Both the position numbers and the translations under genes were made by a program. A model generated the notes under the pieces. That model was not told the DNA's origin, ran no database searches, and worked only from the letters and a program-made list of their open reading frames with translations. A DNA stretch of 54,676 bases from a virus (taxonomy: Duplodnaviria > Caudoviricetes). Of this stretch, positions 5,483 through 34,779 are shown in pieces (position 1 is the first letter of the stretch; each line of letters opens with the position of its first letter). Where the stretch lies: positions 1 to 54,676 of the IMG/VR virus record IMGVR_UViG_3300009161_000056; one strand, written 5' to 3'.

Positions 5483-5508
5483 GGGAGCAGTTGCCATTGC
5501 CTCCTTTG

Positions 5509-5533
5509 GCCCCCGTCACTGGGGGCTTTTTTT
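5509..5533 (+). terminator. Intrinsic terminator ending the late operon, at the junction of convergent transcription
   Basis: GCCCCC-gtcact-GGGGGC followed by T7. Confidence 0.85.
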
Positions 5534-5714
5534 ATGCTGATCCGCCTGTGTGGAAAATCAAGAGTTGAGTTTGCATGAACTGCTCTTTGGCCTCTTCGAT
5601 GCCATCCTCGTACCCTTGATCGTATGCTTCTTGCAAGGCTTCTAGAATTTTGGCCTCTGATTGTTCAAAGCATTCCCAACTTCCCTGTTCATATCGGTGA
5701 CGATTTGTACGCAT
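5532..5714 (-). CDS. Small hypothetical protein (start uncertain)
   Basis: YDQGYEDG motif common in small phage proteins; last ORF of leftward operon; overlaps upstream gene. Confidence 0.4.
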   Translation of the reverse strand: MRTNRHRYEQGSWECFEQSEAKILEALQEAYDQGYEDGIEEAKEQFMQTQLLIFHTGGSA

Positions 5715-5869
5715 CTTTGATGCTCCTTCATGGCGACAATTGGTGCAACGTATGCGGCAATCTTGTGGGCAAACTGGATGATGTCCACTTCGTCGGCGTA
5801 GATTGCATCTGGCAGTTTCTCGTCGCAGTAGAAAAAGATTTGCTTGATTGTTTCTTCACTTAGATGCAT
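5642..5869 (-). CDS. Hypothetical protein (75 aa)
   Basis: ATG at 5869 overlapping the end of the upstream gene; operon tiling. Confidence 0.6.
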   Translation of the reverse strand: MHLSEETIKQIFFYCDEKLPDAIYADEVDIIQFAHKIAAYVAPIVAMKEHQRCVQIVTDMNREVGNALNNQRPKF

Positions 5870-6071
5870 TTTTAATTTTCCAAAGTTCCCAGTTGATGAT
5901 AGATGAGCGAGCGATTGATCGTTGAGCGATTGATTGATAGGGGTTGAGTTCCCCAGACAAGAACTCCTCAACGATCATTTGCTTCTTCAAAAAAAGCTCG
6001 TGCCGCTCTGCCTGCAATGGCTCGTCAAACAGTTTGCCATCGCTTGTTTTGAATGCTTGAATTTGTTCCAT
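5856..6071 (-). CDS. Hypothetical protein (71 aa)
   Basis: AFKTSDGKLF motif seen in small phage proteins; ATG 2 nt after upstream stop. Confidence 0.65.
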   Translation of the reverse strand: MEQIQAFKTSDGKLFDEPLQAERHELFLKKQMIVEEFLSGELNPYQSIAQRSIARSSIINWELWKIKNASK

Positions 6072-14024: not shown

Positions 14025-14263
14025 CCGATCTGTTTGGGCATGAAGAGTTCGATTGGCAAAAAGAATGGCAGGGGATGCCAGAGTTCTTTCAAGAAGACCT
14101 CACGCCATATCGAGTGATCAACTTGCGCTTTAGATGCGAGGAGGATGTGGAGGCGTTCGCCAAGCTGGTGGAGCAGACCATCACGCCCAAGCAGAAGGCG
14201 CTCTGGTTCCCCTTCGCTGAGTTCCGCAGAGCCGCGCATTTGAGGTGGGTCGATGAATCCTAA
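14021..14263 (+). CDS. Small partner protein of the TAGT-type glycosyltransferase
   Basis: EWQGMPEF...F...EDVEAFAKLVEQTIT...LWFP pattern; overlaps glycosyltransferase start. Confidence 0.65.
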   Translation: MTDLFGHEEFDWQKEWQGMPEFFQEDLTPYRVINLRFRCEEDVEAFAKLVEQTITPKQKALWFPFAEFRRAAHLRWVDES

Positions 14264-15128
14264 GTACCCTGTCTACATTGTGTCCAAGGGCCGCTGGGCT
14301 ACGCGCCTGACAAGCAAAGCATTGGATCGTATCAACGTGCCCTACTACATCGTGGTGGAGGCGCACGAGCGCGAGCAGTATGCGGCGGTGATCAACCCTG
14401 AGAGGGTGCTGGTGTTGCCAGAGGGTTACTTGTGGAACTACGACACTTGTGATGACCTTGGTGAGAAGCTCGGCAAAGGCCCCGGGGCCGCAAGAAATTT
14501 CTGCTGGGATCACTCTATGAGCTTGGGCTATGCTAGGCACTGGGTAATGGACGACAACATCGCCAGCTTCAACAGGCTGAACCGCAACCTCATGGTCAAG
14601 GTTACGTCGGGCACCATCTTCCGCGCCGCTGAAGACTTTGTGGATCGCTACGACAACGTCGCTATCGCTGGCTTCAACTATGACTTCTTTGCCAAGGCCA
14701 AGGAACCCCTGCCTGCGTTTGTGATGAACACGCGCATCTACTCCTGCCTGCTGATCCAGAACAGCATCCCCTTCCGCTGGCGAGGCCGCTACAACGAGGA
14801 CACAGACCTTTCCCTGCGTGTGCTGAAGGCCAGCTTATGCACTGTGCAGTTCAATGCATTCCTGCAAGAGAAGGCCACCACGCAAACCATGAAGGGCGGC
14901 AACACCGACGAGTTCTACTCCAAGGAGGGAACCCTGCCTAAGTCCAAGATGATCGAGCGCCTGCACCCTGATGTGGCGGAGGTGGTCTGGCGGTTCAATC
15001 GCTGGCATCACCATGTGGACTACACATCATTCAAGCGCAACCCGTTAGTGCGACGGTACGGCGTGGTCGTCCCAGAGGGGATCAACGGGTACGGCATGGT
15101 GCTGAAAGACACTAGGGAAAATACTTAA
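14253..15128 (+). CDS. GT-A fold glycosyltransferase, TET-associated (TAGT)/GREB1-like family
   Basis: YPVYIVSKGR, ARNF, HWVMDDNI, TRIYSCLLI, GRYNEDTDLSLRVL, MKGGNT motifs. Confidence 0.8.
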   Translation: MNPKYPVYIVSKGRWATRLTSKALDRINVPYYIVVEAHEREQYAAVINPERVLVLPEGYLWNYDTCDDLGEKLGKGPGAARNFCWDHSMSLGYARHWVMDDNIASFNRLNRNLMVKVTSGTIFRAAEDFVDRYDNVAIAGFNYDFFAKAKEPLPAFVMNTRIYSCLLIQNSIPFRWRGRYNEDTDLSLRVLKASLCTVQFNAFLQEKATTQTMKGGNTDEFYSKEGTLPKSKMIERLHPDVAEVVWRFNRWHHHVDYTSFKRNPLVRRYGVVVPEGINGYGMVLKDTRENT

Positions 15129-15219
15129 AAATATTTTCAAAAAAGATGTTGACTCGTTTAATTTCGCGTTATACTAACAACACTGCAATAAGCAGGTAAC
15201 AGCGAATCAGGAGCGAATT
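15113..15219 (+). promoter_or_regulatory. Early promoter cassette 2
   Basis: TAGGGAAAATACTTA, TTGACT(15149)-15-TATACT, AGCGAA at 15201 and 15212. Confidence 0.75.
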
Positions 15220-16098
15220 ATGAACACAGCATCAAACCCCTTCAGCGATATGGAAGACGACTTGGACTTTGGCGCACCAGCCAAGGCCGCTACTGCCGAG
15301 GTGACTTACTTCGAGCAGACTTGCCCTAAGTGCAAAGGCACTGGTCGTTTCACCTTTGGCTACATCAACGTGCGCTCTGGCGAGTGCTTCGCCTGCAAGG
15401 GCAAAGGCAAGATGTCTTTCAAGACCAGCCCAGCCACACGCATGAAGGCCAAGGCCAGCGCACAAAAACGCGCCGTTGCCAAAGCAGAAGCTCAAGCCAA
15501 CAAGGCTCAAGAGTGGAAAGAAGCAAACCCAGCAGAAGCCGCATGGATGGAAAACAGTGCTGGCACATTCGAGTTCGCTCGCTCCATGCTGGATGCCCTC
15601 AACAAATACGGTTCACTCACAGAGCGCCAGATGGAAACCGTCCAGCGCCTGACAGTGCAGTCAGCAGAGCGTCAAGCCACCCGTGTTGCAGAGCAGGCCG
15701 CTCGCGCTGAGTCAGCACCTGTTGTGTCTGTCGAGGCCATCGAGGTTGCATTCAACAACGCCAAAGAGTCTGGCGTGAAGTTCCCCAAGTTGCGCCTCGA
15801 TACCTTTGTGTTCAGCCCTGCTGGCGAGAACAGCAAGAACGCTGGCGCGATCTACATCAAGTCCAAGGGTGACGGCGTGTACTTGGGCAAGGTCATGGGT
15901 GGTCGCCTCTTCACATCACGCGACTGCACCACAGAGGCCGCAGAACGCATCACAGCGGTCGCCAGCGACCCCAAGCAGGCCGCAGTAGCCTATGGCATGA
16001 AATTCGGCTCCTGCTCGGTCTGTGGTCGTCAATTGACCGACAGCGACAGCGTTGCCCGTGGCATTGGCCCCATCTGCGCTGAGAATTACGGTTTCTAA
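15220..16098 (+). CDS. Early protein with DnaJ-type Zn finger and C-terminal DUF6011-like Zn finger
   Basis: CPKCKGTG...CFACKGKG; CSVCGRQLTDSDSVARGIGPICA. Confidence 0.75.
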   Translation: MNTASNPFSDMEDDLDFGAPAKAATAEVTYFEQTCPKCKGTGRFTFGYINVRSGECFACKGKGKMSFKTSPATRMKAKASAQKRAVAKAEAQANKAQEWKEANPAEAAWMENSAGTFEFARSMLDALNKYGSLTERQMETVQRLTVQSAERQATRVAEQAARAESAPVVSVEAIEVAFNNAKESGVKFPKLRLDTFVFSPAGENSKNAGAIYIKSKGDGVYLGKVMGGRLFTSRDCTTEAAERITAVASDPKQAAVAYGMKFGSCSVCGRQLTDSDSVARGIGPICAENYGF

Positions 16099-16210
16099 GG
16101 GAAAGTACCTAGAAAATAATTTTACAAGGGGGCTTGACACCTCCTTTGTTTAAGCTATAATTACACTATGCACCGAACTTCTCGGTGCTACAACAGCGAA
16201 GGAAAGCGAA
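16096..16210 (+). promoter_or_regulatory. Early promoter cassette 3
   Basis: Consensus TTGACA(16134)-16-TATAAT(16156); GCACCGA/TCGGTGC leader hairpin; AGCGAA x2. Confidence 0.9.
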
Positions 16211-16486
16211 ATGAAAGTAGGAAAATCTTATTGGAGTGTTTCAGTTAGCCAAGACAAAGTCTGGAAAGAAGTGGCTTTGACCGAACCCCAAAATAACACT
16301 CGATCAAATGTAATGAGCAAGTGCAAATTGATAAGGGCTAATATCAAGTCGCAATTAAATGGCAAAACTGAATACGCCACAGAAATTGAAGCGCGCAAAG
16401 CATTTGCAAAATTGGATCAAGAGACTGCTAAGTATGTAGATGTTAACGAAAACTTCCCAGTCAATTTAGGTCTTGGCTGGTGTTAA
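16211..16486 (+). CDS. Early hypothetical protein (91 aa)
   Basis: Follows cassette 3; AT-richer than neighbours. Confidence 0.75.
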   Translation: MKVGKSYWSVSVSQDKVWKEVALTEPQNNTRSNVMSKCKLIRANIKSQLNGKTEYATEIEARKAFAKLDQETAKYVDVNENFPVNLGLGWC

Positions 16487-16493
16487 AACAAAC

Positions 16494-16509
16494 GGGGGCT
16501 TCGGCCCCC
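16494..16509 (+). other. cUUCGg hairpin without U-tract
   Basis: GGGGGC-TTCG-GCCCCC. Confidence 0.7.
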
Positions 16510-16543
16510 ACTAAACCAAATCGAAAAGCGAAAGGAAAGCGAA

Positions 16544-16816
16544 ATGAAAATCAATCAACTGGACTACACATTTGACAGCGTCGTGTCATTCGACAACGGC
16601 GAGACCACGCAGGATGTGGCTGTGGGTTATGACTACACCCCAGAGGAACTGAATTACCCCCATGCGCCTGACTACGCCGAGGAGTTCGAGGTGTTTGTGT
16701 TCGACGCTACAGGCAAGGACATCACGCTGGATGTGCCAGAGGAGGACTACCAGCTACTGGTCGAGGAGGCCAAGGCCGACTTCAAGCAAGTGGTCGAGGA
16801 TGCCAACGCATACTAG
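16544..16816 (+). CDS. Highly acidic early protein (90 aa)
   Basis: About 23 D/E versus 4 K and 0 R by hand count; AGCGAA x2 and AAGGA RBS. Confidence 0.75.
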   Translation: MKINQLDYTFDSVVSFDNGETTQDVAVGYDYTPEELNYPHAPDYAEEFEVFVFDATGKDITLDVPEEDYQLLVEEAKADFKQVVEDANAY

Positions 16817-16932
16817 GGAAAGCACCTAGAAAATATTTTTAGATATTTGTTGACGAGGTTTAATTTGGCCTTATATTTACACCACTGACACAGCAAACCT
16901 GCACAGTCAGCCAACAGAGAAGGAACAGCGAA
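16814..16932 (+). promoter_or_regulatory. Early promoter cassette 4
   Basis: TAGGGAAAGCACCTAG, TTGACG(16850)-16-TATATT, CTGAC/GTCAG leader hairpin. Confidence 0.8.
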
Positions 16933-17424
16933 ATGAACACAGAAATCAAAAACGAATTGGTAACAGAATTCAAGGCCCAAATTATTTCCAGCGTGAAATT
17001 CCAATTCAACCGCCTGCATGAAATCTTTGGCCCAACATTCCGTGGCGTTTACAACAGCAAGTCTTACAGCCTCTGGACTTTGACAGTGCGCCCATGCACA
17101 AAGCGCCTCGGTAACCGCATGGATGACGAGATTGTTTTGTGCGAAGACAACATGAACGAATATGCCCAAGAGCAGGCCGAGTTGTTTGCAGACGAGGTGA
17201 TCGCCAAGGTGAACGCCAAGGCTGGTGAGTTGACAGACAGCAAGGTACTTCGCGTCAGCGGCGCAAACTTCCGCATCACTGGCATGAAGGGCGACAAAAA
17301 AGTAATGATCGAGCAAAACCAGATCATCAACGTGTCAGTCAAGGGCAAGCTGTTCAACCAGTTCCCAGCCCGTATCTACGTTGACGGCAAATTCACATCA
17401 GCCGCCGCCTTCAAGAAAATCTAA
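16933..17424 (+). CDS. Early hypothetical protein (163 aa)
   Basis: Follows cassette 4. Confidence 0.8.
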   Translation: MNTEIKNELVTEFKAQIISSVKFQFNRLHEIFGPTFRGVYNSKSYSLWTLTVRPCTKRLGNRMDDEIVLCEDNMNEYAQEQAELFADEVIAKVNAKAGELTDSKVLRVSGANFRITGMKGDKKVMIEQNQIINVSVKGKLFNQFPARIYVDGKFTSAAAFKKI

Positions 17425-17429
17425 ACCAA

Positions 17430-17443
17430 GGGGCTTCGGCCCC
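17430..17443 (+). other. cUUCGg hairpin without U-tract
   Basis: GGGGC-TTCG-GCCCC. Confidence 0.7.
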
Positions 17444-17446
17444 CAC

Positions 17447-17561
17447 TAGGGAAACTACCTAGAAAATATTTTGTCAACCTTATTGCAGGCCCGCACGTTT
17501 AAGTTACAATTACACCAACGACAGCAATCCCGCAGTCGTCTAACAGCGAAGGAATAGAGAA
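17447..17561 (+). promoter_or_regulatory. Early promoter cassette 5
   Basis: TAGGGAAACTACCTAG, TTGCAG(17483)-16-TACAAT, ACGAC/GTCGT leader hairpin. Confidence 0.75.
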
Positions 17562-17786
17562 ATGAACATCGAAGCATCAGCAAAACCAACAAAGTTCCCC
17601 AACATTGTCCGCCATGCGCCCGAAGGTTTTTACACCCGCAAGCCATCATGGACAGGCACTGGCAACAGCGGCAAAACATTTTTGATCCACAACAACGGTT
17701 GCTGGTATTACTCTTACGTCAACTTCAAAAAAACCTCACTCGGTTACAAGTTGGACGAAGTGTCCGAGTCATTGAAACAACTGTAA
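17562..17786 (+). CDS. Early hypothetical protein (74 aa)
   Basis: Follows cassette 5. Confidence 0.75.
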   Translation: MNIEASAKPTKFPNIVRHAPEGFYTRKPSWTGTGNSGKTFLIHNNGCWYYSYVNFKKTSLGYKLDEVSESLKQL

Positions 17787-17821
17787 AACCAAATCAATAA
17801 CCAACTGAAAGCGAGTCGCTT

Positions 17822-18016
17822 ATGAAAGAAGAAATTGAAACAAGTATCCGCACCGAACATGGTGTGCGCGTGTCGGTCTCCGAGTGGGACGACGATGGTG
17901 CGTGGTTGCACTTGCAAGGCCGCAACTCAAACATGAGTACAGTGTTGACTCGTGCCGAGGCCCAGCAGTTGTTGGCTGGCCTGCAAGCCATCTTGGCAAA
18001 AGAGGTGACAGTATGA
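17822..18016 (+). CDS. Hypothetical protein (64 aa)
   Basis: Preceded by AAGCGAGTCGCTT palindrome; ATGA overlap with next gene. Confidence 0.65.
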   Translation: MKEEIETSIRTEHGVRVSVSEWDDDGAWLHLQGRNSNMSTVLTRAEAQQLLAGLQAILAKEVTV

Positions 18017-18225
18017 ACAACATGAGCAACCTGTTTGACGAAGTAGAGGCCGAACTGATGAAGCAGTTCAAAGCCATCACCCCAGAGCAGTTGGCGGAGG
18101 ACGAGCGCCGTCGGCAAGTTAAGCGTGAGTACGAGGCACTGCACACCCCCATCGAGACCGACGAAGACCGAGCCAACACCGACGAGTATCCAGAGGAGGT
18201 TGATGATGAACAAGCAGGAGATTGA
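18013..18225 (+). CDS. Acidic hypothetical protein (70 aa)
   Basis: GAGGTG RBS; ATG at 18013. Confidence 0.6.
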   Translation: MNNMSNLFDEVEAELMKQFKAITPEQLAEDERRRQVKREYEALHTPIETDEDRANTDEYPEEVDDEQAGD

Positions 18226-18424
18226 CGACATGATGAAAAACCTTCCAAGCCAGCAGGTGCAAGAAGAGACCTTGATTCAGAAGATCACAATTGGTATAAT
18301 GTTCATACTGGTTTTGGTTTTGATGATGTGGGCACCAGACTTCATATTGAGTGAAGAGGAGTGCCTGCAACAAAGCCCTCGCGCAATCACAATTGGCTTG
18401 TGTAGCGAACCGAAAGCGAAATAA
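18206..18424 (+). CDS. Small membrane protein (72 aa)
   Basis: GAGGAGG RBS; TM segment ITIGIMFILVLVLMMWA; two C-terminal Cys. Confidence 0.6.
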   Translation: MNKQEIDDMMKNLPSQQVQEETLIQKITIGIMFILVLVLMMWAPDFILSEEECLQQSPRAITIGLCSEPKAK

Positions 18425-18607
18425 AACCGAGTCGGTTCTTGGCCTCAAAGGCCGAGGCCGACAACATCTTCTGGCCTTAGAGGTCGCTGATGTAGGTGAG
18501 ACAAGGCAACTCCTTGATTGGTATTCCTATGCCTAAAGCAAGGACTGGCGAACCATAAGCGAATCGATTACACTGCGATCAATTCGACATTATGGGGAAT
18601 ATGGGTT

Positions 18608-19210
18608 ATGCCAGAAACACCGAAGGGGCCAAAGAGGCCCGCAAAGAACGTAAGAGCGGCACAAGAGGCCGCAAAAGCAATTGGGAAGGCCAAGGTAGCC
18701 GCAAAGGCCACAAAGGCTCCTACGCCCGCTAAAACTGGCAGACCAACAAAGTACAACCAAGACACTGCTAACCTCATATGCATGATGCTAAGTGAGGGAA
18801 TGAGCTTGAGACAAATACTGAAGGCTGACACAGTAGGGAAACTCCCAGCGCAGTCTACGGTTTATGAGTGGTTGATACGCCACCCTCTCTTTCAAGAGCA
18901 ATACGCGCGCGCTCGTGAAGAGCAGGCTGACACCAACGCTGATGAAATCTTGGAGATTGCGGACGAGCATCCTCCTGAGTACACAGACGAGAAGGGCCGC
19001 ACGAGTCTGGACGTTACCTACATCCAGTGGCAGAAGAACCGCATCGAGGCCCGTAAGTGGACAGCCGCCAAGCTACGGCCCAAGAAGTATGGCGACCGTG
19101 TGGCGGTGGAGGGCGTGGAAGGTGGTGCCGCCATCAAGACTGAGGACGCTACTGCTGACAAGTTCCTTGAGATCATTCGCAACATGGAGATGAAGAAACG
19201 TGCTGGCTGA
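18608..19210 (+). CDS. terS: Terminase small subunit
   Basis: GRPTKY...ICMMLSEGMSLRQI...TVYEWL...YARARE...EILEIAD...RKWTAAKLRPKKYGD (Sf6-like); precedes TerL. Confidence 0.9.
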   Translation: MPETPKGPKRPAKNVRAAQEAAKAIGKAKVAAKATKAPTPAKTGRPTKYNQDTANLICMMLSEGMSLRQILKADTVGKLPAQSTVYEWLIRHPLFQEQYARAREEQADTNADEILEIADEHPPEYTDEKGRTSLDVTYIQWQKNRIEARKWTAAKLRPKKYGDRVAVEGVEGGAAIKTEDATADKFLEIIRNMEMKKRAG

Positions 19211-20639
19211 GATGCTGGAAGACCCAGAGGTACAGGCGGAGTTCAACTCCTACCCTCTGCATGACCGCATTGCCAAGATTGCTCACGCCGCTTGGATAGA
19301 GCAGGCGCACCCTTACCAGATACCGCCAGACCTTGAGATTGATTACACGGTGTTTTTAATGTTGGCAGGCCGAGGTGCAGGCAAGACTCGGTCAGCGGCT
19401 GAAGCACTATGGTGGTGGGCATGGACGCACCCAGACACAATGAGCATTGTTCTGGCACCTACGAGCGGTGACTTGAAGTTCACCTGCTATGAAGGGCCGA
19501 GCGGCTTGCTCGCCTGCATCCCCAAAGAACTGGTGGTGGACTACAACAAGCAGGATCACTTGATCAAGCTGTCCAACGGCTCCAAGATCAGGGGTGTGTC
19601 AGCAGACTCGTATGACCGCCTGCGTGGTATCAACTCCAGCTTCTGTTGGTGTGATGAGTTGGCGGCATTTAATTATCTTGGCCCGAACGAGGCATGGGAC
19701 AACATGATGTTAGGGTTGAGGATTAAACCAGACGACAAGCCCTACAGCCACCCTCGTGTGATCGTGACCACAACCCCGCGCCCAAAGGACTTGATCCTTG
19801 ACCTAGTGGGTCGTGAGGGTGACGATGTGGTGGTCTCCCGCGCCAGCACATACGACAACGCCAAGAACCTCGACAAAGCCTTCCAGAAGCAGTTGGAGTC
19901 GTACAAGGGCAGTAAGCTGTACGAGCAGGAGGTGTTAGGTCAGATCGTTGACCTCGAAGATGGCAAGGTAGTCAACCGCGATATGTTCAAGCTGTGGCCT
20001 CACAGCAAGCCCTTTCCCAAGTTCGAGTACATCATCCAGTCCTATGATTGCGCCTTCAGCGACAAGGAGTACAACGACCCTACCGCCATGACCACATGGG
20101 GAATCTTCAAGCCCCTTGATGGCCCGATGTCCGTCCTGCTGATCGACTGCTGGGCAGAACACCTCACCTTCCCTCTGCTCAAGCCCAAAGTGATCGAGGA
20201 GTGGCGCGTGTCGTATGGTGAGGGCAAGCAGGCCAAGAGGCCAGACCTGATTCTCGTGGAGGACAAGGCCGCAGGCATATCGCTGATCCAAGAACTGCGG
20301 CAGATGCACTTGCCTGTGCGTGGGTATAACCCGGGCCGTGCGGACAAGATGCAACGCCTCCAGATCACCGCCAGCATCTTTACGACTGGCAGGGTGTGGT
20401 TGCCTGAGTCGTCCGTCCGCAAGGGCTATGTCAAGGACTGGTGCGAGGGCTTCCTGTCCCAGTTGTGTTCCTTCCCTGACTCAACGCATGACGACTATGT
20501 GGACAGCGCGACACAAGCGATTCGGTTATTGAAAGATATGGGGTGGCTCGACATCAATCCCGAACCAAGAGATAATGACGACGAAGACGACTATCTGGAA
20601 TACACGCAACCGAAACGTGTCAACCCCTACTCGATATAA
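19200..20639 (+). CDS. terL: Terminase large subunit
   Basis: Walker A GRGAGKT, Walker B WCDE, VTTTP, nuclease motifs SYDCA and HDDYVDS. Confidence 0.95.
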   Translation: MLAEMLEDPEVQAEFNSYPLHDRIAKIAHAAWIEQAHPYQIPPDLEIDYTVFLMLAGRGAGKTRSAAEALWWWAWTHPDTMSIVLAPTSGDLKFTCYEGPSGLLACIPKELVVDYNKQDHLIKLSNGSKIRGVSADSYDRLRGINSSFCWCDELAAFNYLGPNEAWDNMMLGLRIKPDDKPYSHPRVIVTTTPRPKDLILDLVGREGDDVVVSRASTYDNAKNLDKAFQKQLESYKGSKLYEQEVLGQIVDLEDGKVVNRDMFKLWPHSKPFPKFEYIIQSYDCAFSDKEYNDPTAMTTWGIFKPLDGPMSVLLIDCWAEHLTFPLLKPKVIEEWRVSYGEGKQAKRPDLILVEDKAAGISLIQELRQMHLPVRGYNPGRADKMQRLQITASIFTTGRVWLPESSVRKGYVKDWCEGFLSQLCSFPDSTHDDYVDSATQAIRLLKDMGWLDINPEPRDNDDEDDYLEYTQPKRVNPYSI

Positions 20640-20641
20640 CT

Positions 20642-23600
20642 ATGGCTGACTTCCGCAAAATTGGCAAAGGCATAACTGGCGCTTTATCTAAGGCCAAGGA
20701 GATCGCCGCCGCCGAGCGTGAAGCTAACCTCCAGAGAATGCTAGACCCAAGCGCAGTGAAGATGCGCCTGTACCACGGCACGACCGCGACCGAGGGTGGC
20801 AAGGGCCAAGAGGCCATACGCCGCATTAAGCCTAGCAAGGAGGGCGCGTTAGGCTCTGGTGTATACATGACCCCTAACACCGCACACGCGAGCAGTTATA
20901 CGGGCATCCCTAATGACGACGCGATTGAGGCCATGCGCGGCAGTGAGTATTACTCCAAGATGGCTGACCAGTTTATGGCTGACCGTGCGGCAGGCACGTT
21001 GCGTGAAGGGCAGGCAGGCGGCAATATGTTGCCAGTCTATGCCCAGATCAAGAACCCTCTGATCATTGGCAAGTCAGGCAGGCAGATTGATCCAGCCGCA
21101 GAAGCCCTGATCAACCTTGGCATGGACGAGGCGAGCGCCATCAAGCTAGTGGAGAAGGCGTTCGAGGAGAAGGGCAACATTGGCAAGCAGATTCAGAGCA
21201 GGGCGCAGGCTCAAGGCTATGACGGCATCATGCAGTATCGAGGCGACGACCTGAGTGAGGTGGTGTCTTACAACCCTAACGCAGTCAAGAGCGCCATCGG
21301 CAACCAAGGCACTTACGACATTTACAGTCCAGACTTGAGCAAAGCCAATGGTGGCGCAATCCACATGGAAGAGGGTGGAAGTTTTGTATTGGGTAAGCCA
21401 AAAAGTTTTACGGAAAGGCTTAGTGAAGCAGTTCCAAAGGCAATAAGAATACCCAAAGACCCATTAGCCATTATTCTTAATCACGGTTATGGCGCTTACA
21501 AAAATTACACAGGTAAAGACCCGCTAGGTGATTTCCAAAAAGAACTTGATCGCAAGATAAACCCTGAGACTGATACAGGTTCTGCGCCTGTCCAGCAGTT
21601 TGAAAAGTTGGCTGATGGTGGCAAGATTGTGAAGGGCGTGACTGGCGCATTGAACAAAGCCAAGTATTTGGCAAGCGAGGCCAAGCGATTGAAGATGGGC
21701 GAGGTACTGCCAAAGGAAGAGGCCGATGAAAACCTTCGCAAGATGCTTGACTCAAGCAAGATCAAAGAGAAGCTGTATCACGCAACGCCGAGCGACATCA
21801 AGTTCTTCAAGCCGGGTGGCCTCGATCCACGAGTCAGTGGCGAAGCAATTTGGCTATCCAACGATCCAACCAGAACACCCGCCGCCCACAACATCGGCTC
21901 CTACGACAACCCACGCCAAGGCGTAAACGTCATGCCCGTCCATGTGCAAGCCAAGAACCCAATGGTGCTTGACGACGAGACCATGCTCAAGTGGGCGCAA
22001 GAGGTGTATGGCGAAGGCAGTCGCGAGTTCCCCATGTTGATGCCTAAGAAGTGGCGCGAAGAGGTGATGAAGGATTACGATAGCATCGTGCTGGCTGATC
22101 CATACAAGCGCGGCGACTCACATGAGATCATTATGTTTGAGCCAGAGAAGATCAAATCAGCAATAGGTAACCGTGGGACGTACAACACAGACACGGCAGA
22201 CATAACCAAATCGAAAGGCGGGGTGCTTCATATGGCAGACGCAGGAAAAGTAACCAAGGGAATAGTTGGTGCATTAACCAAAGCCAAAGAGATGGCAAAG
22301 GCCCGCAAGGCCACCGCAGAAGGTTCTAAGATTGAAGAGGTGCTGGCAAGCCAAACTCCTCCGATGACTACACCAAGCGGCACAGGTTTGCCACTCATGC
22401 CTCGCGACAATGGGATGTACACCCTGCGTGAGCAAAAAGACCTGCCCCGTATGCCAATGGTGGACAAGGCCCGCGCCGAGGGTAAGTCACCCAAGTACAA
22501 CGAGCGTATGCAAGACTTGCTTGACAGCCCCAAGGCCAGACAGAAGGTGGACAAGTTGATCAACAAGGGCAAAGAGTTGAACGTGCAGGAGTGGTATGGC
22601 ACTGAACCTCTACGTCAGGTCGCGTTAGACGCAGGCCGCACCCCAGAACAGTTTGAGTCACTGATGGCCCAGTTGGCAAGCGCCAGCCAGCGCAACCCAG
22701 TGGACAAGCAAAACCAGATGGGATCGTACCTGTACCACCTGAGTGAGTCGGGCCAACTGCCAGAGAACTCGCTCCTCTTGACCAACAAGCTCAAGAAGGC
22801 GCTCAAAGAAGACCCCTCACTTGCTGAAGGTCGCACACTCGTCGAGTTGCCCACAGGCTACGGATCGCTGGCGCAGGGTGACATCTTCAACCGCGCTGTG
22901 ATGATTGGTCAGGGCAAGATCGGTGAAGCCCTGCCCCCAAACAAGAAGCTCGGCACGTTCTACGAGAACTTGCTTGGCAACCTAAAGCCCGTGACGGTGG
23001 ATGTAAACGCACTGCGTGGCCCGATCATTGAGCAGGGTGACCCGCGCTGGTTGACCAGCAAGCTCGTGGAGAAGGACGACAAGGGCAAGATCATCAACAG
23101 CTACAAGCCTCGTGAGATGTACAACTCAGGGGAGATGTCGATGAGAGAAGCGCAACAGCGCCCCGGGTTCTGGGAGGCCGCGCCCTCTGGCTCCGAATAC
23201 GCAGGCTTCGAGGAGTTGTGGCAACGTGGTGCCAAGCGCCACAACGTCGAGCCAGCAGAGGCGCAGGCTTTGGGTTGGTACGGCTCCGCTGATGTGACGG
23301 CGCTGAAGACTAAGCCAGAGAACTATGTGGACAACCTAGAGCGCCTGATCAAACGCACCGCCGAGCAGACTGGCAAGTCCGCCACTGAGGTGATGAACGA
23401 CATGGTCACAGGCAATGGGTTCCTTCGCAAAGACGGTGGCAAAGTCGAGGAACCGCACTGGCACAACGTCTTCAACCGCAAGATGAAGGAAGGTGGCTAC
23501 GCTTGGGTTGACAGCAAGCACATCCCCAAGGTTCGCTCGCTCAAGAATATGGCAAAGGGCGGCTCATCAGATGATCCTCCCTTTAGTGAATACATTAAAG

Positions 23601-24220
23601 ATGTACCACAGGTCATAAAAGAAGCAACTCAAGAAGAAGCCGAGTCATACAAAAAACCTCGCGCTATTTCCGATGTGATCTACCGTGGTTTGGTTGCCAA
23701 CAACCCTGTTAGCGCAGGCGTTGACATGGTAAACATGGGCCTAATGGGCGTAGATGCGGTGTCTGGCCTTATGGGAAAACCGACTCGGTTAGCGAGTGAA
23801 AAGCCATTCGCTGGTTCCGAACACGTTAAAGACCTGATGAAGAAGTACGGCGTGACCACTGAAGAGGAGCGTCCAATCTCTGAGACTCTGCTTGGCATTA
23901 CATCGCCCACGGCAATTCTCAAGGGCGCAAAAGAAATACCAAAATTACTTGGCAAAGCAGGCGACGCTATCAAGGGTGGCTTGCCAAAGAACCTGCCTGT
24001 GGGCATGAGCATCGAGATTGTTGGCGACTTGACTCCCAAAGAGCAGGCGCTTGCCAAAATGCGCGAGATGCGCCCAGACTTAAAAGCCACTTCTGATTTA
24101 CAAAAGAAGTACGATGCTGAGATGGATAGCAAGTACACCCGTGATATGCCTACGTTCGAGCAGTGGAAAGCCAAGCAGAACGCTAAGAAGGCTCACGGCG
24201 GTTTAACCTTGATGAGATAA
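20642..24220 (+). CDS. Polyvalent protein: two ADP-ribosyltransferase-like (ART-PolyVal-type) domains, a putative HhH/glycosylase-like domain and further modules
   Basis: Two YH[GA]T...PV[YH]...KNP...YD[GS]I...E...[VI]KSAIGNxGTY units (~20762-21340, ~21765-22200); third domain ~22590-23420. Confidence 0.75.
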   Translation: MADFRKIGKGITGALSKAKEIAAAEREANLQRMLDPSAVKMRLYHGTTATEGGKGQEAIRRIKPSKEGALGSGVYMTPNTAHASSYTGIPNDDAIEAMRGSEYYSKMADQFMADRAAGTLREGQAGGNMLPVYAQIKNPLIIGKSGRQIDPAAEALINLGMDEASAIKLVEKAFEEKGNIGKQIQSRAQAQGYDGIMQYRGDDLSEVVSYNPNAVKSAIGNQGTYDIYSPDLSKANGGAIHMEEGGSFVLGKPKSFTERLSEAVPKAIRIPKDPLAIILNHGYGAYKNYTGKDPLGDFQKELDRKINPETDTGSAPVQQFEKLADGGKIVKGVTGALNKAKYLASEAKRLKMGEVLPKEEADENLRKMLDSSKIKEKLYHATPSDIKFFKPGGLDPRVSGEAIWLSNDPTRTPAAHNIGSYDNPRQGVNVMPVHVQAKNPMVLDDETMLKWAQEVYGEGSREFPMLMPKKWREEVMKDYDSIVLADPYKRGDSHEIIMFEPEKIKSAIGNRGTYNTDTADITKSKGGVLHMADAGKVTKGIVGALTKAKEMAKARKATAEGSKIEEVLASQTPPMTTPSGTGLPLMPRDNGMYTLREQKDLPRMPMVDKARAEGKSPKYNERMQDLLDSPKARQKVDKLINKGKELNVQEWYGTEPLRQVALDAGRTPEQFESLMAQLASASQRNPVDKQNQMGSYLYHLSESGQLPENSLLLTNKLKKALKEDPSLAEGRTLVELPTGYGSLAQGDIFNRAVMIGQGKIGEALPPNKKLGTFYENLLGNLKPVTVDVNALRGPIIEQGDPRWLTSKLVEKDDKGKIINSYKPREMYNSGEMSMREAQQRPGFWEAAPSGSEYAGFEELWQRGAKRHNVEPAEAQALGWYGSADVTALKTKPENYVDNLERLIKRTAEQTGKSATEVMNDMVTGNGFLRKDGGKVEEPHWHNVFNRKMKEGGYAWVDSKHIPKVRSLKNMAKGGSSDDPPFSEYIKDVPQVIKEATQEEAESYKKPRAISDVIYRGLVANNPVSAGVDMVNMGLMGVDAVSGLMGKPTRLASEKPFAGSEHVKDLMKKYGVTTEEERPISETLLGITSPTAILKGAKEIPKLLGKAGDAIKGGLPKNLPVGMSIEIVGDLTPKEQALAKMREMRPDLKATSDLQKKYDAEMDSKYTRDMPTFEQWKAKQNAKKAHGGLTLMR

Positions 24221-24222
24221 CT

Positions 24223-26733
24223 ATGGCAACACAATTTCCAATTGATCCAAACGCCGAGCGATTTATCGACGGCTTGAAGATGACCGACGATGGTGGTGCT
24301 GTTGCTGACCTGCCTGATGAAGAGGGACTCGATGTAGAGGAGCTTGACGACGGCTCGGCAATCGTTAACTTGCAAGACTTCAAAGGCCCAACAGAAGACG
24401 CAGACTTTTACTCCAACCTCGCGGAGACCATGAACCTCTATGACATGGAGAAGATTGGAATGCGTTACCTTGACCTGATTGAGAAGGACAAGGAGGCTCG
24501 CGAGAAGAGGGACAAACAATACGAAGAGGGACTGAAGCGGACGGGCTTGGGGGATGATGCCCCGGGCGGTGCGAACTTTTTCGGAGCCAGCAAAGTCGTT
24601 CACCCTATCATGGCTGAAGCCTGCGTGGACTTTGCCTCCCGCGCAATCAAAGAGATGTTCCCCCCAGACGGCCCCGTCCGCACCAAGGTGCTTGGCGAGG
24701 TGACTGAGGAGAAGACCAACGTCGCAGAGCGCAAGCGCGACTACATGAACTGGCAGTTGACTGAGCAGATCGAGGAGTTCCGCGACGAGCAAGAACAGTT
24801 GTTGACGCAGTTGCCTTTGGGTGGCTCCCAGTTTATGAAGATTTGGTACGACGAATCCAAGCGCCGCCCCTGCGCTGAGTTTGTGCCTATCGACAACATG
24901 ATCCTGCCCTTTTCTGCTGTGAACTTCTACACCGCCCAGCGCGTGACTGAACAGCAAGACATCACTGGCTGGGAAATGCAACAGCGCATTGACCGTGGCC
25001 TGTACCGCGACATCAGCTTTATTCGCGCAACGGACGAGCCAGAGCAGACCAAAGCTGAGAAGGCCAACGATAAGATTGAAGGCAAAGAATACAACGACAA
25101 CGAAGATGGCCTGCGCCGTGTATTCCACATCTACACTTGGCTGAACATTGACGACGACACAGTGACGGAAGGCGAGACCGCGCCCTACATCCTGATGATC
25201 GATGAGCTTGAGAGCAAAGTGCTTGGCATCTACCGTAACTGGGAAGAGGGCGACAGCACCATGACCAAGCTCGACTGGTTGGTTGAGTTTAAATTCATCC
25301 CTTGGAGGGGCGCGTATGCCATCGGGCTACCTCACCTCATCGGAGGTCTCTCCGCCGCCTTGACGGGCGCATTACGGGCCTTGCTGGATACTGCTCACAT
25401 CAACAACTCCGCCACAATGTTGAAGTTGAAGGGTGCGCGTATCTCTGGCGCAAGTCAGCAGATAGAAGTCACGCAGGTCACTGAGATTGAATCCGCCGTT
25501 GGTGTGGACGACATCCGCAAAATTGCGATGCCCATGCCCTTCAACCCACCTAGCCCTGTGCTGTTTGAGTTGCTAGGCTGGATCACCACTGCCGCCAAAG
25601 GCGTTGTGACAACAGCGGAAGAGAAGATTGCGGATGCCAACAGCAATATGCCAGTGGGCACCACGCAGGCGTTGATCGAGCAGGGAGCCGCAGTGTTCTC
25701 CGCCATTCACGCCCGCCTGCATGAAAGCCAGCGCCGTGTGTTGCAGGTGATCGGTCGTTTGAACCGCTGGTATTTGGACGAGCAAAAACGTGGCGATGTG
25801 GTTGCTGACCTTGAGATCAAGCGCGAAGACTTCAAACGCAACAGCGATGTGATCCCTGTCTCTGACCCTCACATCTTCTCCGAGACTCAGCGTATTGCCC
25901 AGATGCAATCTGTGTTGCAGATGTCTGCACAGTTCCCTGCACTCTTTGACCAACGCGCTGTTGTAAATCGAATGCTCAAGCAGTTGAAGGTTCCAAACGT
26001 CAACGAGTTGATTCCTAACGCAAGCAAGCCTATTGAGATGAATGCCGCAGACGAAAACTCTGCAATGGCATTAGGTCGTCCAGCGTTTGCATACCCCCGT
26101 CAGGATCACTTGGCGCACATCCAAACGCACATGAACTTTGCGCTTGACCCCACCTTGGGATCAAACAAGCTCATGGCCCCCAAGTTCATCCCGAACGCAT
26201 TGGAGCATATCAAGCAACATATGCTGTTGTGGTACACGCAGAACATGAGCAAATACGTCCAAGGCAATGGCGATGTGGACTTTGGCAAATACGAAGACAG
26301 CAAGTTGGTCAAAGAGATCGACAACGCTATCTCGTTGGCCTCTGGTCACATGAAGATTGACTCGCAAGAGGTGTTTGCTGGTTTGTTGCCTGCATTGGAG
26401 CAGTTAGGCCAGATGATGCAACAGTTCAAACCACCACCACCACCGATGGATGGCGAAGCGCAGGCCGTGTTGCAGGCTTCTATGGCAGAGACCCAGCGTC
26501 GCGCCGCAGAGGATCAAGCACGACTTGCCTTCGACACCCAGAAGTTCCAAGCCGAGATGAAGGCAAAGCAGGAGGCAGAGCAGATCAAAGTGGCTATGAA
26601 CGCCGAAAACAATCTGACTACCGAGCGCATTAAGACCGCAGAGTTGACCGTAGACGAGGTCAAGCTACGGCAGGAGCAAGAGAAAACTGCTGTGAAACTT
26701 AACCAAGAAACCCAACGTAACTTAGGAGATTGA
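24223..26733 (+). CDS. Portal protein
   Basis: 836 aa after terminase; FYSNLAE, DYMNWQL, LPLGGSQFMK, PVGTTQALIE, SAIHARLH motifs; C-terminal coiled coil (P22-like). Confidence 0.9.
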   Translation: MATQFPIDPNAERFIDGLKMTDDGGAVADLPDEEGLDVEELDDGSAIVNLQDFKGPTEDADFYSNLAETMNLYDMEKIGMRYLDLIEKDKEAREKRDKQYEEGLKRTGLGDDAPGGANFFGASKVVHPIMAEACVDFASRAIKEMFPPDGPVRTKVLGEVTEEKTNVAERKRDYMNWQLTEQIEEFRDEQEQLLTQLPLGGSQFMKIWYDESKRRPCAEFVPIDNMILPFSAVNFYTAQRVTEQQDITGWEMQQRIDRGLYRDISFIRATDEPEQTKAEKANDKIEGKEYNDNEDGLRRVFHIYTWLNIDDDTVTEGETAPYILMIDELESKVLGIYRNWEEGDSTMTKLDWLVEFKFIPWRGAYAIGLPHLIGGLSAALTGALRALLDTAHINNSATMLKLKGARISGASQQIEVTQVTEIESAVGVDDIRKIAMPMPFNPPSPVLFELLGWITTAAKGVVTTAEEKIADANSNMPVGTTQALIEQGAAVFSAIHARLHESQRRVLQVIGRLNRWYLDEQKRGDVVADLEIKREDFKRNSDVIPVSDPHIFSETQRIAQMQSVLQMSAQFPALFDQRAVVNRMLKQLKVPNVNELIPNASKPIEMNAADENSAMALGRPAFAYPRQDHLAHIQTHMNFALDPTLGSNKLMAPKFIPNALEHIKQHMLLWYTQNMSKYVQGNGDVDFGKYEDSKLVKEIDNAISLASGHMKIDSQEVFAGLLPALEQLGQMMQQFKPPPPPMDGEAQAVLQASMAETQRRAAEDQARLAFDTQKFQAEMKAKQEAEQIKVAMNAENNLTTERIKTAELTVDEVKLRQEQEKTAVKLNQETQRNLGD

Positions 26734-26914: not shown

Positions 26915-27096
26915 GGTATACCTCCGACTTCATCGGCGCTGTAAAAGCGCGTAAAGAAGCTATTACGCAGAGTTTGGCAGTGGGTAACGCCTCTGACTAC
27001 CCTGCGTATCAGCGACTGGTCGGACATATCGCTGGACTTGAAGAAGCCCTTGTCATTCTTGATAACCTTTTAAAGGAAGAAGACGATGACAGATAG
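26911..27096 (+). CDS. Small head-module protein (61 aa)
   Basis: LAVGNASDYPAYQRLVGHIAGL, typical of the small gene preceding phage GroES. Confidence 0.7.
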   Translation: MRYTSDFIGAVKARKEAITQSLAVGNASDYPAYQRLVGHIAGLEEALVILDNLLKEEDDDR

Positions 27097-27520
27097 CACG
27101 GTGGCTGGTAATTCAGCCGATTTGCGGGAAGCCTTTCCTGCTGTAGACCCCGGAGCGAAACCCCTTGGCGCACGAGTTTTAGTACAACTGCGTCGAACAA
27201 AGAAGACGGTAACTGCAAGCGGGATTGTTCTGGTCTCAGAGACCAGAGAAACCGAGAAGTGGCAAAACATGGTCGCGAAAGTGATCGAGATCGGCCCATT
27301 GGCGTTTAAGAAGCGCGACACAATGGAACCGTGGCCCGAAGGTTCATGGTGTGAAGTTGGTGATTATCTTCGCGTCCCTAAGTGGGGCGGTGATCGTTGG
27401 GAGGTTCCAGTCCCTGACGCAGAACAAGATGATGACCCAGCGTTGTTTATGGTTCTAAACGACCATGAAATCATCGCAAAACTTACTGGTGACCCCCTTG
27501 CAATGAAGGCATTCATATGA
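27086..27520 (+). CDS. groES: GroES-like co-chaperonin
   Basis: KPLGARVLV, TASGIVL, AKVIEIGP, EVGD, LNDHEII. Confidence 0.85.
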   Translation: MTDSTVAGNSADLREAFPAVDPGAKPLGARVLVQLRRTKKTVTASGIVLVSETRETEKWQNMVAKVIEIGPLAFKKRDTMEPWPEGSWCEVGDYLRVPKWGGDRWEVPVPDAEQDDDPALFMVLNDHEIIAKLTGDPLAMKAFI

Positions 27521-33181: not shown

Positions 33182-33706
33182 ATGCCAAGCAAATCACCTT
33201 CCCAACATCGTTTGATGGAGGCGGTCGCACATAACCCTGCGTTCGCCAAAAAGGTGGGTATTCCCCAAAAAGTTGGCAAAGAGTTTGCTCGTGCTGATGA
33301 GGGGAAAAAACTTAAAGGAGGCGGTCTATATGACAACATCAATGCAAAACGTCAAAGAATCGCTGAAGGTTCTGGCGAAAAAATGCGCCGAGTGGGTAGC
33401 AAAGGTGCGCCAACGGCTGAAGCCTTCCGAGAGTCAGCAAAAACCGCCAAATTAAAAGATGGCGGGCCAAGTCTTGCTGTTGGACGGGGTGAAAAATTAT
33501 CCGTTGAAAAGGGCGCAGGGCTTACGCAAAAGGGCAGAGACAAATACAATAGAGAGACTGGTTCTCACTTGAAAGCTCCACAGCCTCAAGGCGGTGCCCG
33601 TAAGGATTCATTTTGTGCCCGCATGAGCGGGGTGGTTGAACATTCAAAAGGGGACGCTCCACGCGCCAAAGCATCGCTGAAGCGGTGGGACTGCCCCGGC
33701 TGGTAA
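33182..33706 (+). CDS. Basic three-module protein with C-terminal DUF6321-like domain
   Basis: RKDSFCARMSG...ASLKRWDC; modules separated by LKGGG and LKDGG. Confidence 0.65.
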   Translation: MPSKSPSQHRLMEAVAHNPAFAKKVGIPQKVGKEFARADEGKKLKGGGLYDNINAKRQRIAEGSGEKMRRVGSKGAPTAEAFRESAKTAKLKDGGPSLAVGRGEKLSVEKGAGLTQKGRDKYNRETGSHLKAPQPQGGARKDSFCARMSGVVEHSKGDAPRAKASLKRWDCPGW

Positions 33707-33717
33707 GGACACATAAC

Positions 33718-34779
33718 ATGGCGTTTTCTGGAACCGTAGGACAGACCGTCATCAATGTACAGACATTGATTGATCACGGCGCTAGACGCTGTGGAAAGCT
33801 CGCCGAAGAGTTAACTTCTGAGCAGGTGCTGTCAGCCCGACAATCGCTGTACTTCTTGCTTTCCAATCTTGGAAACCGAGGTATTCAGTTTTGGACAATC
33901 ACCAAGAAGGTTCTTGGTTCACAGATAGACAACTACCTTTACACCCTTCCAAAAGGCACAATTGACCTCTGGAACGTGCTGTATCGCACAATGGCGCGCC
34001 CCAATGGCGCATACACCAGTTCTGCTGGCGGAACCGTTGCAAACGTATATGACGGTGATACACAGACGATTTGCACCCAAACGTCCGCTGATGGCAACAT
34101 TTCCGTCAATTACGGCACATCCAACCCAATTTATATTGGCTCCATTGGATTCTTGCCTGCTTCGACTGGCTCGTGGTCAATCATTTATGAATACTCAATA
34201 GACGGCACAACTTGGGCCACTTTGGTTGATCTTGGCACCATTGATGTGGTCAACAACACTTGGGTGTGGACTGACATTGAGGCTGGTCAAACGGTCGCTT
34301 TTTACCGCATTCGCGCCTACAACACGACAACCCTGTCGTTGCGTGAGTTGTACTTTGGGAACAACTCGCTTGAGGTTCAGATGTCTCCACTGAACCGCGA
34401 CGACTACACCAACCTGCCAAACAAGAACTTTACAGCAAACCAACCTTATCAATATTGGTTTGACCGCACTATTCCCCAGCCATCGATTTATGTGTGGCCT
34501 ACGCCATCAACTGCTTTTGTGCAGATCGTTTGCTGGTACTCGCGTCAAATTGAAGACGTTGGATCACTCACTGATGAGCTTGAGATTCCCCAGCGTTGGT
34601 ATGAGGCTGTGCAGATGATGCTTGCCCACCGCATGGCGCTTGAGTTGCCACAGGTTGCAATGGATCGTGTTGGCTATCTTGAAAAGATGGCGGATAAGTT
34701 TTTGGCAGATGCTGAAGCTGAAGAGCGGGATCGTTCACCAATTTACTGGGCACCGAATATTTCGGTGTATACGGCCTAA
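33718..34779 (+). CDS. Head-tail adaptor-like protein with inserted jelly-roll (discoidin-like) domain
   Basis: LNRDDYTNLPNK, QYWFD, VWPTP, IPQRWYEA motifs; central EYSIDGTTWAT...YRIR insert. Confidence 0.65.
   Translation: MAFSGTVGQTVINVQTLIDHGARRCGKLAEELTSEQVLSARQSLYFLLSNLGNRGIQFWTITKKVLGSQIDNYLYTLPKGTIDLWNVLYRTMARPNGAYTSSAGGTVANVYDGDTQTICTQTSADGNISVNYGTSNPIYIGSIGFLPASTGSWSIIYEYSIDGTTWATLVDLGTIDVVNNTWVWTDIEAGQTVAFYRIRAYNTTTLSLRELYFGNNSLEVQMSPLNRDDYTNLPNKNFTANQPYQYWFDRTIPQPSIYVWPTPSTAFVQIVCWYSRQIEDVGSLTDELEIPQRWYEAVQMMLAHRMALELPQVAMDRVGYLEKMADKFLADAEAEERDRSPIYWAPNISVYTA

Follow-up and report, generated by a model that had tools for sequence, protein, structure and literature searches.

We analysed IMG/VR virus record IMGVR_UViG_3300009161_000056 (Duplodnaviria; Caudoviricetes) over its whole length of 54,676 bases, referred to as the window in the following. 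The record stems from freshwater metagenomes and is 100% complete by CheckV. Between the genes of the large terminase subunit (TerL) and the portal protein lies one long open reading frame (ORF). Its product, a single polypeptide, would string together two ADP-ribosyltransferases (ARTs), a module of family DUF7178 and a shared C-terminal tail. The large modules A, B and C are each preceded by a leader of 22 residues, and Gly-Gly (GG) motifs mark the joints between the segments. For coordinates of all parts and of the neighboring genes see Table 1. In our reading, to which we assign a probability of roughly three in four, the ORF encodes a virion-associated polyvalent protein of an uncultured, podovirus-like freshwater phage, and its joints are in-frame exchange sites for host-directed modules.

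An initial annotation of the sequence had reported that each enzymatic module of this ORF starts with the same leader. On translation, the three leaders at nucleotides 20642, 21608 and 22232 (residues 1, 323 and 531) agreed with that report letter for letter. Any two of them share 13–15 of 22 residues and 42–44 of 66 bases. Twelve residues are the same in all three, and differing codons are used for 11 of these 12. The conservation therefore lies in the peptide and not in a DNA repeat; a repeat search found no long DNA repeat. We built a profile hidden Markov model (HMM) of the leader from 125 family junction peptides, the window's own three copies among them. In a six-frame translation of the whole record it matched these three sites only (E ~1e-8 to 1e-9; next best E 1.2). 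An independent junction profile (A7) returned the same three sites together with the leaderless junction of A and L at 21329–21379, all within the polyvalent ORF. The wording of the annotation has to be narrowed in two respects. Two of the leader-bearing modules are indeed predicted ARTs, but the third belongs to the uncharacterised family DUF7178, whose likeness to DNA glycosylases is confined to predicted structure, and the small segments L and D1–D3 have GG joints without a leader.

The annotation had further noted that the base composition shifts across GG motifs. All four of its spot GC counts were reproduced exactly (35/60 at 21121–21180, 22/60 at 21421–21480, 37/60 at 23341–23400 and 21/60 at 23581–23640). 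The shift resides in the GC content of third codon positions (GC3, Table 1) and is real and local, but not extreme on the scale of the genome. Fisher tests gave p = 2e-9 for L against A and B together and p = 1e-8 for D2 against C. Across the genome the GC3 of genes ranges from 0.32 to 0.77, and 10.9% of 984 84-codon windows taken from the other ORFs have a GC3 of 0.333 or less. What lends the GC3 shift its significance is chiefly its coincidence with the borders of exchange described below.

Leaders rich in K, A and G within a compositionally patchy genome might resemble each other by chance or through low complexity, with the GC differences being noise. We regard the likelihood of this as negligible. 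The three HMM hits, the only ones in six frames of the record, share one ORF and one frame, and the motif recurs 159 times in 121 relatives. Together with the independent junction profile, these hits and this recurrence rule out a chance origin of the leader likeness. The GC3 contrasts (p ~1e-8 to 1e-9) coincide with indel borders.

A search of 5.8 billion proteins, in which 8000 candidates were scored, yielded 805 relatives of the protein at E ≤ 1e-3, with lengths of 663–2073 residues among the 120 matches listed. The blocks of the window's protein recur in them, often with 70–90% identity, in other orders and positions. Protein P0014, for example, has the architecture C-A-L-D2, P0047 has C-A-D2, and in P0005 a B-like block precedes B and A. 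Among the tail blocks, D2 is the most widely shared. Additional domains found in the relatives are GDSL lipase, ParB_N, PcfJ, LPD23 and DUF3990. The 113 copies of block A in 159 proteins have 27 kinds of right neighbors and 20 kinds of left neighbors; the corresponding numbers are 13 and 14 for block B and 5 and 12 for block C. A single-linkage clustering of the leader-delimited segments merged them all into one cluster and was discarded.

On either side of the gene the order is constant. TerL lies upstream in all 45 related loci (72–95% amino acid identity), and the portal gene is colinear, with 73–97% identity, in the 25 loci that reach that far. Each of 21 distinct TerL-portal intervals contains one polyvalent ORF of 880–1707 residues. 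The 21 complete genes, i.e. that of the window and those of 20 relatives, fall into 15 block architectures, that of the window recurring in none of the 20 relatives. Locus L045, the nearest backbone (TerL 95%, portal 97% identical), is devoid of module A, and in L031, with a TerL of 75% identity, module A is 90% identical. Module identity is uncoupled from the phage backbone. It had been proposed from the sequence that cassettes of GG motif, leader and effector are concatenated and exchanged, and a comparison of orthologous loci had been suggested as the check, with colinear orthologues speaking against the idea. The comparison revealed module swaps: the orthologues are not colinear inside the gene, the flanks are colinear, and DNA breakpoints lie at the joints.

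Locus L020 shows an irregularity at 4457–5922. Its TerL match spans only 317 residues, and a second frame of 259 residues precedes the polyvalent gene. A frameshift or an assembly error may be responsible.

Searching 50,697 phage records with the gene by Megablast gave no match, and tblastn gave only five partial, single-module matches (Microcystis phage MJing1; Roseobacter CRP-3 and CRP-212; Pseudomonas F116 twice). No cultured relative was found to carry the joint in these phage-record searches.

In blastn comparisons of the window with loci L045, L043 and L003, the DNA match ends at 22296 and restarts at 22279, with 770–790 extra bases in between in those loci. A three-way alignment of leader 3 with the two successive leaders of L045 showed that it corresponds to the upstream leader up to ACCAAAGCCA and to the downstream leader thereafter. 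The switch point falls within the shared ACCAAAGCCA, at approximately 22277–22286, and the two parts match the leaders of L045, L043 and L003. Leader 3 is therefore a crossover product. Locus L001 is without 21369–21613, i.e. cassette L is absent. The site of this cassette lies between HM(E/V)(E/D)GG and K(I/L)xKG and is flanked by GAN-GGN-GGN codons. Both leader 3 and cassette L of the window are hence products of crossovers at joints. Locus L003 diverges at 21355 and again at 23571 and rejoins at 23982, so that 23572–23981 is replaced. The breaks at 21355 and 23982 immediately follow GG codons, and 23571 is located three codons past the GG of residues 973–974.

Breaks at 21354/5, 21613/4, 22224 and 23982 were also seen in contigs from four runs of four other studies; this evidence refers to the portion of the stretch covered by contigs. 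In a contig of run X8, 21355–21613 is replaced by 508 other bases, and one of run X10 departs from the window at 21355. A start at 21614 was also observed among the contigs from other studies. In X7 and X8 the contigs reach no further than 22224, and in both runs matching begins at 23982, just past the GG of residues 1112–1113. The segments of low GC3 are those that are absent or replaced in other populations. At the protein level, 185 of 240 homology endpoints are found within 12 residues of nine joint positions, a region that comprises 15.7% of the chain, and 0 of 240 near three GGs located inside the ART domains. These comparisons show that the joints are sites of in-frame addition, deletion and swapping of modules between related phages, while TerL and the portal stay colinear.

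Several points weigh against the reading of the joints as exchange sites or limit its reach. The endpoint counts are not independent events, and a p-value calculated from them overstates the significance, because many of the relatives share ancestry. Any multidomain protein that shuffles would break near its domain borders, and the crossover is placed inside the joint itself only by the comparisons of leader 3, of L001 and of the contigs from other studies. An all-against-all blastn survey of endpoints was noisy: the interval from −60 to +90 nt around recognised leaders captured only 33% of the starts and 17% of the ends of homology, compared to 10% expected. One reason is that leaderless GG joints were uncounted, and the survey was also confounded by relatedness. 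Since L and D1–D3 have joints of this leaderless type, the leader is not needed for exchange. The composition of the genome is patchy, so that a GC shift alone is no proof of foreign origin. Packaging and ejection of the polyvalent protein, finally, and thereby its delivery into the host alongside the DNA, are what we infer from the position of the gene and from published polyvalent proteins.

The 121 relatives contain 159 leaders, 54 N-terminal and 105 internal ones. They comprise 128 distinct leaders (89 internal, 39 N-terminal). All 89 internal leaders have Gly at position 5, preceded by Gly, Ala or Val at position 4 (62, 21 and 6 cases, respectively). In the N-terminal leaders Gly occurs at position 4 or 5 in 0 of 39 cases, and these positions read FR, FK, AK etc. 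As Gly at positions 4–5 is limited to internal leaders, the GG belongs to the linkage and not to the helix. The large modules would be linked by an acidic-Gly-Gly hinge (..h-A-D/E-G-G) and a basic amphipathic helix of ~22–34 residues (K-h-x-K-G-h-x-G-A-L-x-K-A...). A long form of the joint, ..GG-x-x-H-M-A-D-(G/A)-G-K, is present in 37 of the 89 internal joints. The C-terminus is similarly marked: the window's protein ends with ..HGGLTLMR at 24197–24217, where the GG stands five residues before the end, and the corresponding cap ..GGLT.M(R/K) is shared with 12 of 21 related loci, despite differing preceding domains. Distant stand-alone ART proteins end with GG plus 2–17 residues, some of them with ..GG(K/R)VTHAHHLEIEERPL.

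For a structural view of the joint we used an AlphaFold2 model of residues 296–600 (75-row alignment, mean predicted local distance difference test score, pLDDT, of 73.5). The GG joints have pLDDT values below 50 and are followed by helices at residues 329–352 and 534–567. The hydrophobic moment of the leader is above that of shuffled sequences (p ~0.004), and its net charge is +3 or +4. According to the model, the GG hinge would be disordered and lead into an amphipathic helix. The modules behind the leaders are unrelated to each other and include ART-PolyVal, DUF7178, a ParB_N-like domain (P0054) and several unassigned ones. Hinge and helix would let each module fold and be exchanged independently, and any joint-bounded cassette would be plug-compatible because the joint is kept in frame. 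The helix may double as a common handle. The joint is lineage-specific: of 1.84 billion representative proteins, 35 matched its profile at E ≤ 1e-3, and a single protein can carry as many as six copies.

The leader might also be a functionless, hitch-hiking recombination scar, kept only because leader-bearing cassettes can insert by homologous recombination. Its limitation to the narrow lineage of those 35 proteins would suit such a scar, as would the crossovers inside the leader and the fact that leaderless cassettes move too. A pure DNA-homology device, however, would conserve the DNA, and with 42–44 of 66 bases shared and 11 of the 12 invariant residues encoded by differing codons the leader does not; these codon differences argue for selection on the leader peptide. 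The amphipathic periodicity and the near-invariant Gly and Lys across the 128 distinct leaders suggest a structural role as well. We therefore consider a mere scar to be quite unlikely. Since the peptide is conserved with differing codons, only short patches of DNA identity are left (e.g. ACCAAAGCCA or GAN-GGN-GGN), and it is in these patches that the crossovers occurred.

The long joint (GG-x-x-H-M-A-D) bears a resemblance to a gene end fused to a gene start, as a comparison with the gene's own end (..GGLTLMR, stop, 2 nt, ATGGCA) illustrates. It could thus be an internal translation start, in which the Gly-Gly codons act like a Shine-Dalgarno (SD) sequence 9 nt before an in-frame ATG. Nested shorter products would then begin with MAD and the leader, like the full-length protein. 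Met begins 53 of the 89 internal leaders, and a GG lies within the eight upstream residues in 37 of 89. The predicted pairing with the anti-SD sequence averages −5.8 kcal/mol over 29 junction Mets, which is equal to the value for 27 gene starts of the window (−5.7) and far stronger than that for 1200 further internal Mets (−2.6). GG dipeptides in general, however, pair equally well in that geometry (mean −6.7, n = 473), and because of this control we see no selection for an SD sequence beyond the Gly codons. Lys begins 26 of the 89 internal leaders, leader 2 of the window begins with Leu and is without an SD sequence, and the conserved His ahead of the Met points to a peptide motif. An internal start is consequently very improbable.

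In phage T4, internal proteins and the ART Alt carry an N-terminal capsid-targeting sequence of about 10 residues, and the prohead protease cuts at L/I-x-E. By analogy, the ORF could encode a true polyprotein that is cut after each joint GG, and the helix of each freed effector could act as a packaging, ejection or targeting signal. The leader resembles the T4 sequence in being a short N-terminal peptide shared by effectors, an ART among them, that would be packaged in the head. The T4 signal, however, is located on separate gene products and is removed by a protease, whereas the window has a 22-residue helix inside one ORF with a GG joint, and no protease gene was found. Head-to-tail modules that are cut after Gly-Gly are known from polyubiquitin and from the core polyproteins of adenovirus and African swine fever virus. 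In the window, too, the modules end with GG and a short cap follows the last GG; this is a likeness of layout only.

The distribution of the motif fits such a cleavage. GG (or AG/VG) precedes 89 of 89 internal leaders and 0 of 39 N-terminal ones, and in the window and 12 of 21 loci a GG is located 5–7 residues from the C-terminus, similar to the stand-alone ARTs. As a flexible linker, however, the GG hinge is explained equally well. The joints are predicted to be disordered and would hence be accessible to a protease, but a Pfam scan found no peptidase family in 35 ORF products of the complete record, and some ORFs are left unannotated. The head genes look protease-free as well, with a separately encoded scaffold-like protein and a major capsid protein (MCP) of 304 residues without a delta domain. 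One leader per large module, conserved at the peptide level, is what a separate delivery of the modules would require; against this, the tail block D2, common to most architectures, would suffice to load the whole chain. The GG layout is compatible with cleavage and does not show it, and we found no description of proteolytic processing of virion polyvalent proteins in the literature searched. Cleavage combined with a signal function of the helix is in our view unlikely.

The same doubt applies to the wider picture of a plug-and-play effector polyprotein, whose modules, arranged as in polyubiquitin with a GG cap at the C-terminus, would be freed by GG cleavage and each be tagged by the helix for loading near the portal or for targeting in the host. 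If it were true, hinge and tag would be a sorting signal and a recombination site in one, and the freshwater phage population would share one pool of anti-host enzymes. A complex prediction for the scaffold-like protein, the MCP and a peptide of junction plus leader scored 0.17 (mark 0.32), which is no evidence either way.

Polyvalent proteins of phages and conjugative elements carry many effector domains per polypeptide, and their packaging and injection have been predicted (Iyer, Burroughs, Anand, de Souza, Aravind 2017, PMC5512222). Their mosaicism is published and has been ascribed to an arms race, and recombinational cassettes were suggested for one subgroup (PMC5512222). Head-packaged ARTs were described, along with polyvalent proteins, in PMC5512222 and PMC9503650. 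We classify the gene as a phage polyvalent protein because Pfam detects two ART-PolyVal stretches and DUF7178 in it, i.e. at least two effector-type domains on one polypeptide. It is moreover a late head gene of a portal-terminase system, found at the same place in 45 related loci. With the proteins described in PMC5512222 it has in common multiple effectors, the ART-PolyVal domain, the portal-terminase head module and the mosaic architecture; unlike many of them, it contains none of the peptidase domains. The main text of PMC5512222, as distinct from its supplementary alignments, makes no mention of a conserved inter-module joint that marks exchange points. Neither did we find a prior description of a conserved hinge-plus-helix joint in polyvalent proteins in the literature searched.

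Motif-guided exchange is characterised by a conserved motif that flanks variable segments and by breakpoints that map onto this motif, and both were observed here. In the adhesins gp38/gp37 of T-even phages, hypervariable segments are separated by conserved glycine-rich motifs and His boxes (Trojet et al. 2011, PMC3157838; citing Tetart et al. 1998). As in these adhesins, short conserved motifs flank variable segments, exchange takes place in or near the motifs, and the segments form a networked, interchangeable pool (PMC3157838). The T-even motifs, however, are the structural core of one receptor-binding domain whose loops are swapped, whereas in the window whole enzymatic domains are exchanged at an inter-domain hinge and helix. 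A second parallel is provided by the VENN motif of CdiA and the PxxxxDPxGL motif of Rhs proteins, which demarcate exchangeable C-terminal toxins (Poole et al. 2011, PMC3150448). There, too, a conserved peptide motif borders cassettes that are replaced by recombination (PMC3150448). The CdiA and Rhs systems comprise a single variable tip together with an immunity gene and silent orphan cassettes (PMC3150448), in contrast to the several modules in tandem of the window. Neither an orphan module nor an immunity-like gene was seen in the 21 distinct TerL-portal intervals. The window's portal gene begins 2 nt past the stop codon; in several loci ~170 nt that include a further start codon precede the portal frame. 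The joint resembles the T-even adhesin and CdiA/Rhs motifs in mechanism and is not a member of those systems.

Polyvalent proteins are regarded as a payload injected by phages to disarm the host, and their domain mosaics have been read as traces of an arms race. Here the exchange points are readable base by base: the joint keeps the frame and supplies micro-homology for crossovers, and it was seen breaking in contigs of several independent lake metagenomes. This offers a concrete, testable model of effector shuffling in phages. It also provides a parsing rule for giant ORFs of this kind, which can be divided at their GG joints. Should the leader turn out to be a signal, nature would thereby offer a design by which foreign proteins could be loaded into capsids.

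Table 1. Parts of the polyvalent ORF and neighboring genes in the window. GC3 is the GC content of third codon positions.
Feature	Position	Strand	GC3	Description
Leader 1	20642..20707	+		N-terminal form MADFRK.GKG..., without Gly at positions 4-5
Module A	20708..21355	+	0.70	ART-PolyVal domain, H45, Y75, E206; ends ...KSAIGNQGTYD...SKANGG
Cassette L	21356..21613	+	0.33	leaderless insert of ~85 residues; (D/E)GG codons at both borders
Leader 2	21608..21673	+		LADGGKIVKG...; hinge is GG at 21617-21622; predicted helix, residues 329-352
Module B	21674..22222	+	0.68	second ART-PolyVal, H-W-E variant; ends ...KSAIGNRGTYN...SKGG; best Pfam stretch residues 377-513
Leader 3	22232..22297	+	0.36 (junction and leader)	MADAGKVTKG...; recombinant joint
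Module C	22298..23434	+	0.73	DUF7178; invariant K769, D787
C-terminal tail D1-D3	23435..24217	+	D1 0.77, D2 0.45, D3 0.65	D1 with three GG motifs; D3 ends in cap ...HGGLTLMR
Small terminase subunit	18518-19210			upstream of the polyvalent ORF
Large terminase subunit (TerL)	19200..20639	+		Pfam Terminase_6N/6C, PHROG; conserved left flank
Polyvalent multi-effector ORF	20642..24220	+		1192 residues; single ORF between TerL and portal
Portal protein	24223..26733	+		PHROG portal; conserved right flank
GroES/Cpn10-like co-chaperonin	27086-27520			between the portal and the scaffold-like gene

In a Pfam search the ORF product matched ART-PolyVal (PF18760) in two stretches with E 1.4e-26 and a score of 94.4 bits (gathering cut-off 31.2); DUF7178 scored just below its cut-off. 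The catalytic triad of the ART superfamily members considered here is H-Y-E. In the alignment of residues 1–600 (A2), the triad columns of module A contain H in 78 of the 78 residues present, Y in 55 of 79 (the others being H, W and F) and E in 59 of 79. With the residues H, W and E, an enzymatic activity of module B is less certain than that of module A. Alignment A2 was unsuited to folding, because rows of the B type had been laid onto module A, and the alignment of residues 296–600 (A3) was folded instead. In a Foldseek search with the resulting model, all 50 rows listed belonged to the ART superfamily, with weak matches (E 4e-3 and above, TM 0.25–0.5). They include tankyrase catalytic domains, diphtheria toxin and one RES toxin.

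Module C has only DUF7178 among its nearest Atlas clusters. Its AlphaFold2 model (residues 553–935) reached a pLDDT of 88.7 and a predicted TM score of 0.84. A structure comparison with VIA-align gave Tm1821 Ogg as the top match (Z 10.0, r.m.s.d. 3.6, 184 aligned residues), a Z-score below ~13 being one that can reflect a common arrangement of helical folds. The first 22 rows all belong to the HhH-GPD DNA glycosylase superfamily. Foldseek against the PDB returned nothing at E ≤ 1e-3, phmmer and hmmsearch against PDB sequences returned nothing useful, and no glycosylase was detected by profile for module C. The residues K769 and D787 are 18 positions apart and do not vary among 41 sequences. 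HhH-GPD glycosylases have a catalytic Asp and, in bifunctional members, a Lys ~18–20 residues apart, located after the hairpin; the K769–D787 spacing resembles that of the catalytic pair in endonuclease III. DUF7178 may thus be a phage-borne enzyme similar to DNA glycosylases. As the sequence profiles do not confirm the link, we take it as a lead only, albeit one for an uncharacterised family; DUF7178 was not mentioned in the literature searched. Other phages carry proteins of 390–554 residues that have a DUF7178 module and are without any ART domain.

Downstream of the co-chaperonin gene follow a charged, scaffold-like protein of 323 residues and the HK97-type MCP. The junctions on both sides of the polyvalent gene, TerL/polyvalent (20627–20644) and polyvalent/portal (24208–24225), have the sequence ..GA(T/G)ATAACTATGGC.. 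in common, and at both of them the downstream gene begins with MA, 2 nt past the stop codon. The shared sequence may act as a signal for coupling or mark a place at which the entire gene is swapped.

An ORF that is open at the 3' end of the record (51794–54676) is in phase with one that is open at the 5' end (1–774); joined, they would encode ~1219 residues. The record probably represents a complete genome with circular permutation; in IMG/VR it is listed as linear with 100% completeness.

At 14253–16098, a gene for a TET-associated glycosyltransferase (TAGT, E 2e-43) adjoins one for a DUF6011 protein. This neighborhood suggests that the phage hypermodifies its own DNA, which is of interest alongside an injected module that is possibly glycosylase-like. 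An ORF at 48343–49458, amid structural genes, has the N- and C-terminal domains of beta-ketoacyl synthases (E 1e-10 to 2e-12), which is unusual in a phage; it overlaps an ORF on the minus strand (48274–49005). Large proteins without assigned families (646, 628 and >961 residues), encoded at 1710–5482 and 49904–54676, adjoin a protein of 610 residues that contains an SLT transglycosylase domain. These large proteins probably represent T7/P22-type internal or ejection proteins, distinct from the polyvalent protein. Two genes matched the SU10 adaptor family (33685–34779 and 43678–44313), one match being weak (E 7e-6) and one good (E 2e-23). The GC3 of the tail-fibre and laminin-G genes (37217–41225) is 0.32–0.38, compared to 0.72–0.77 in TerL and TAGT (14253–20639), and the entire genome is a compositional mosaic.

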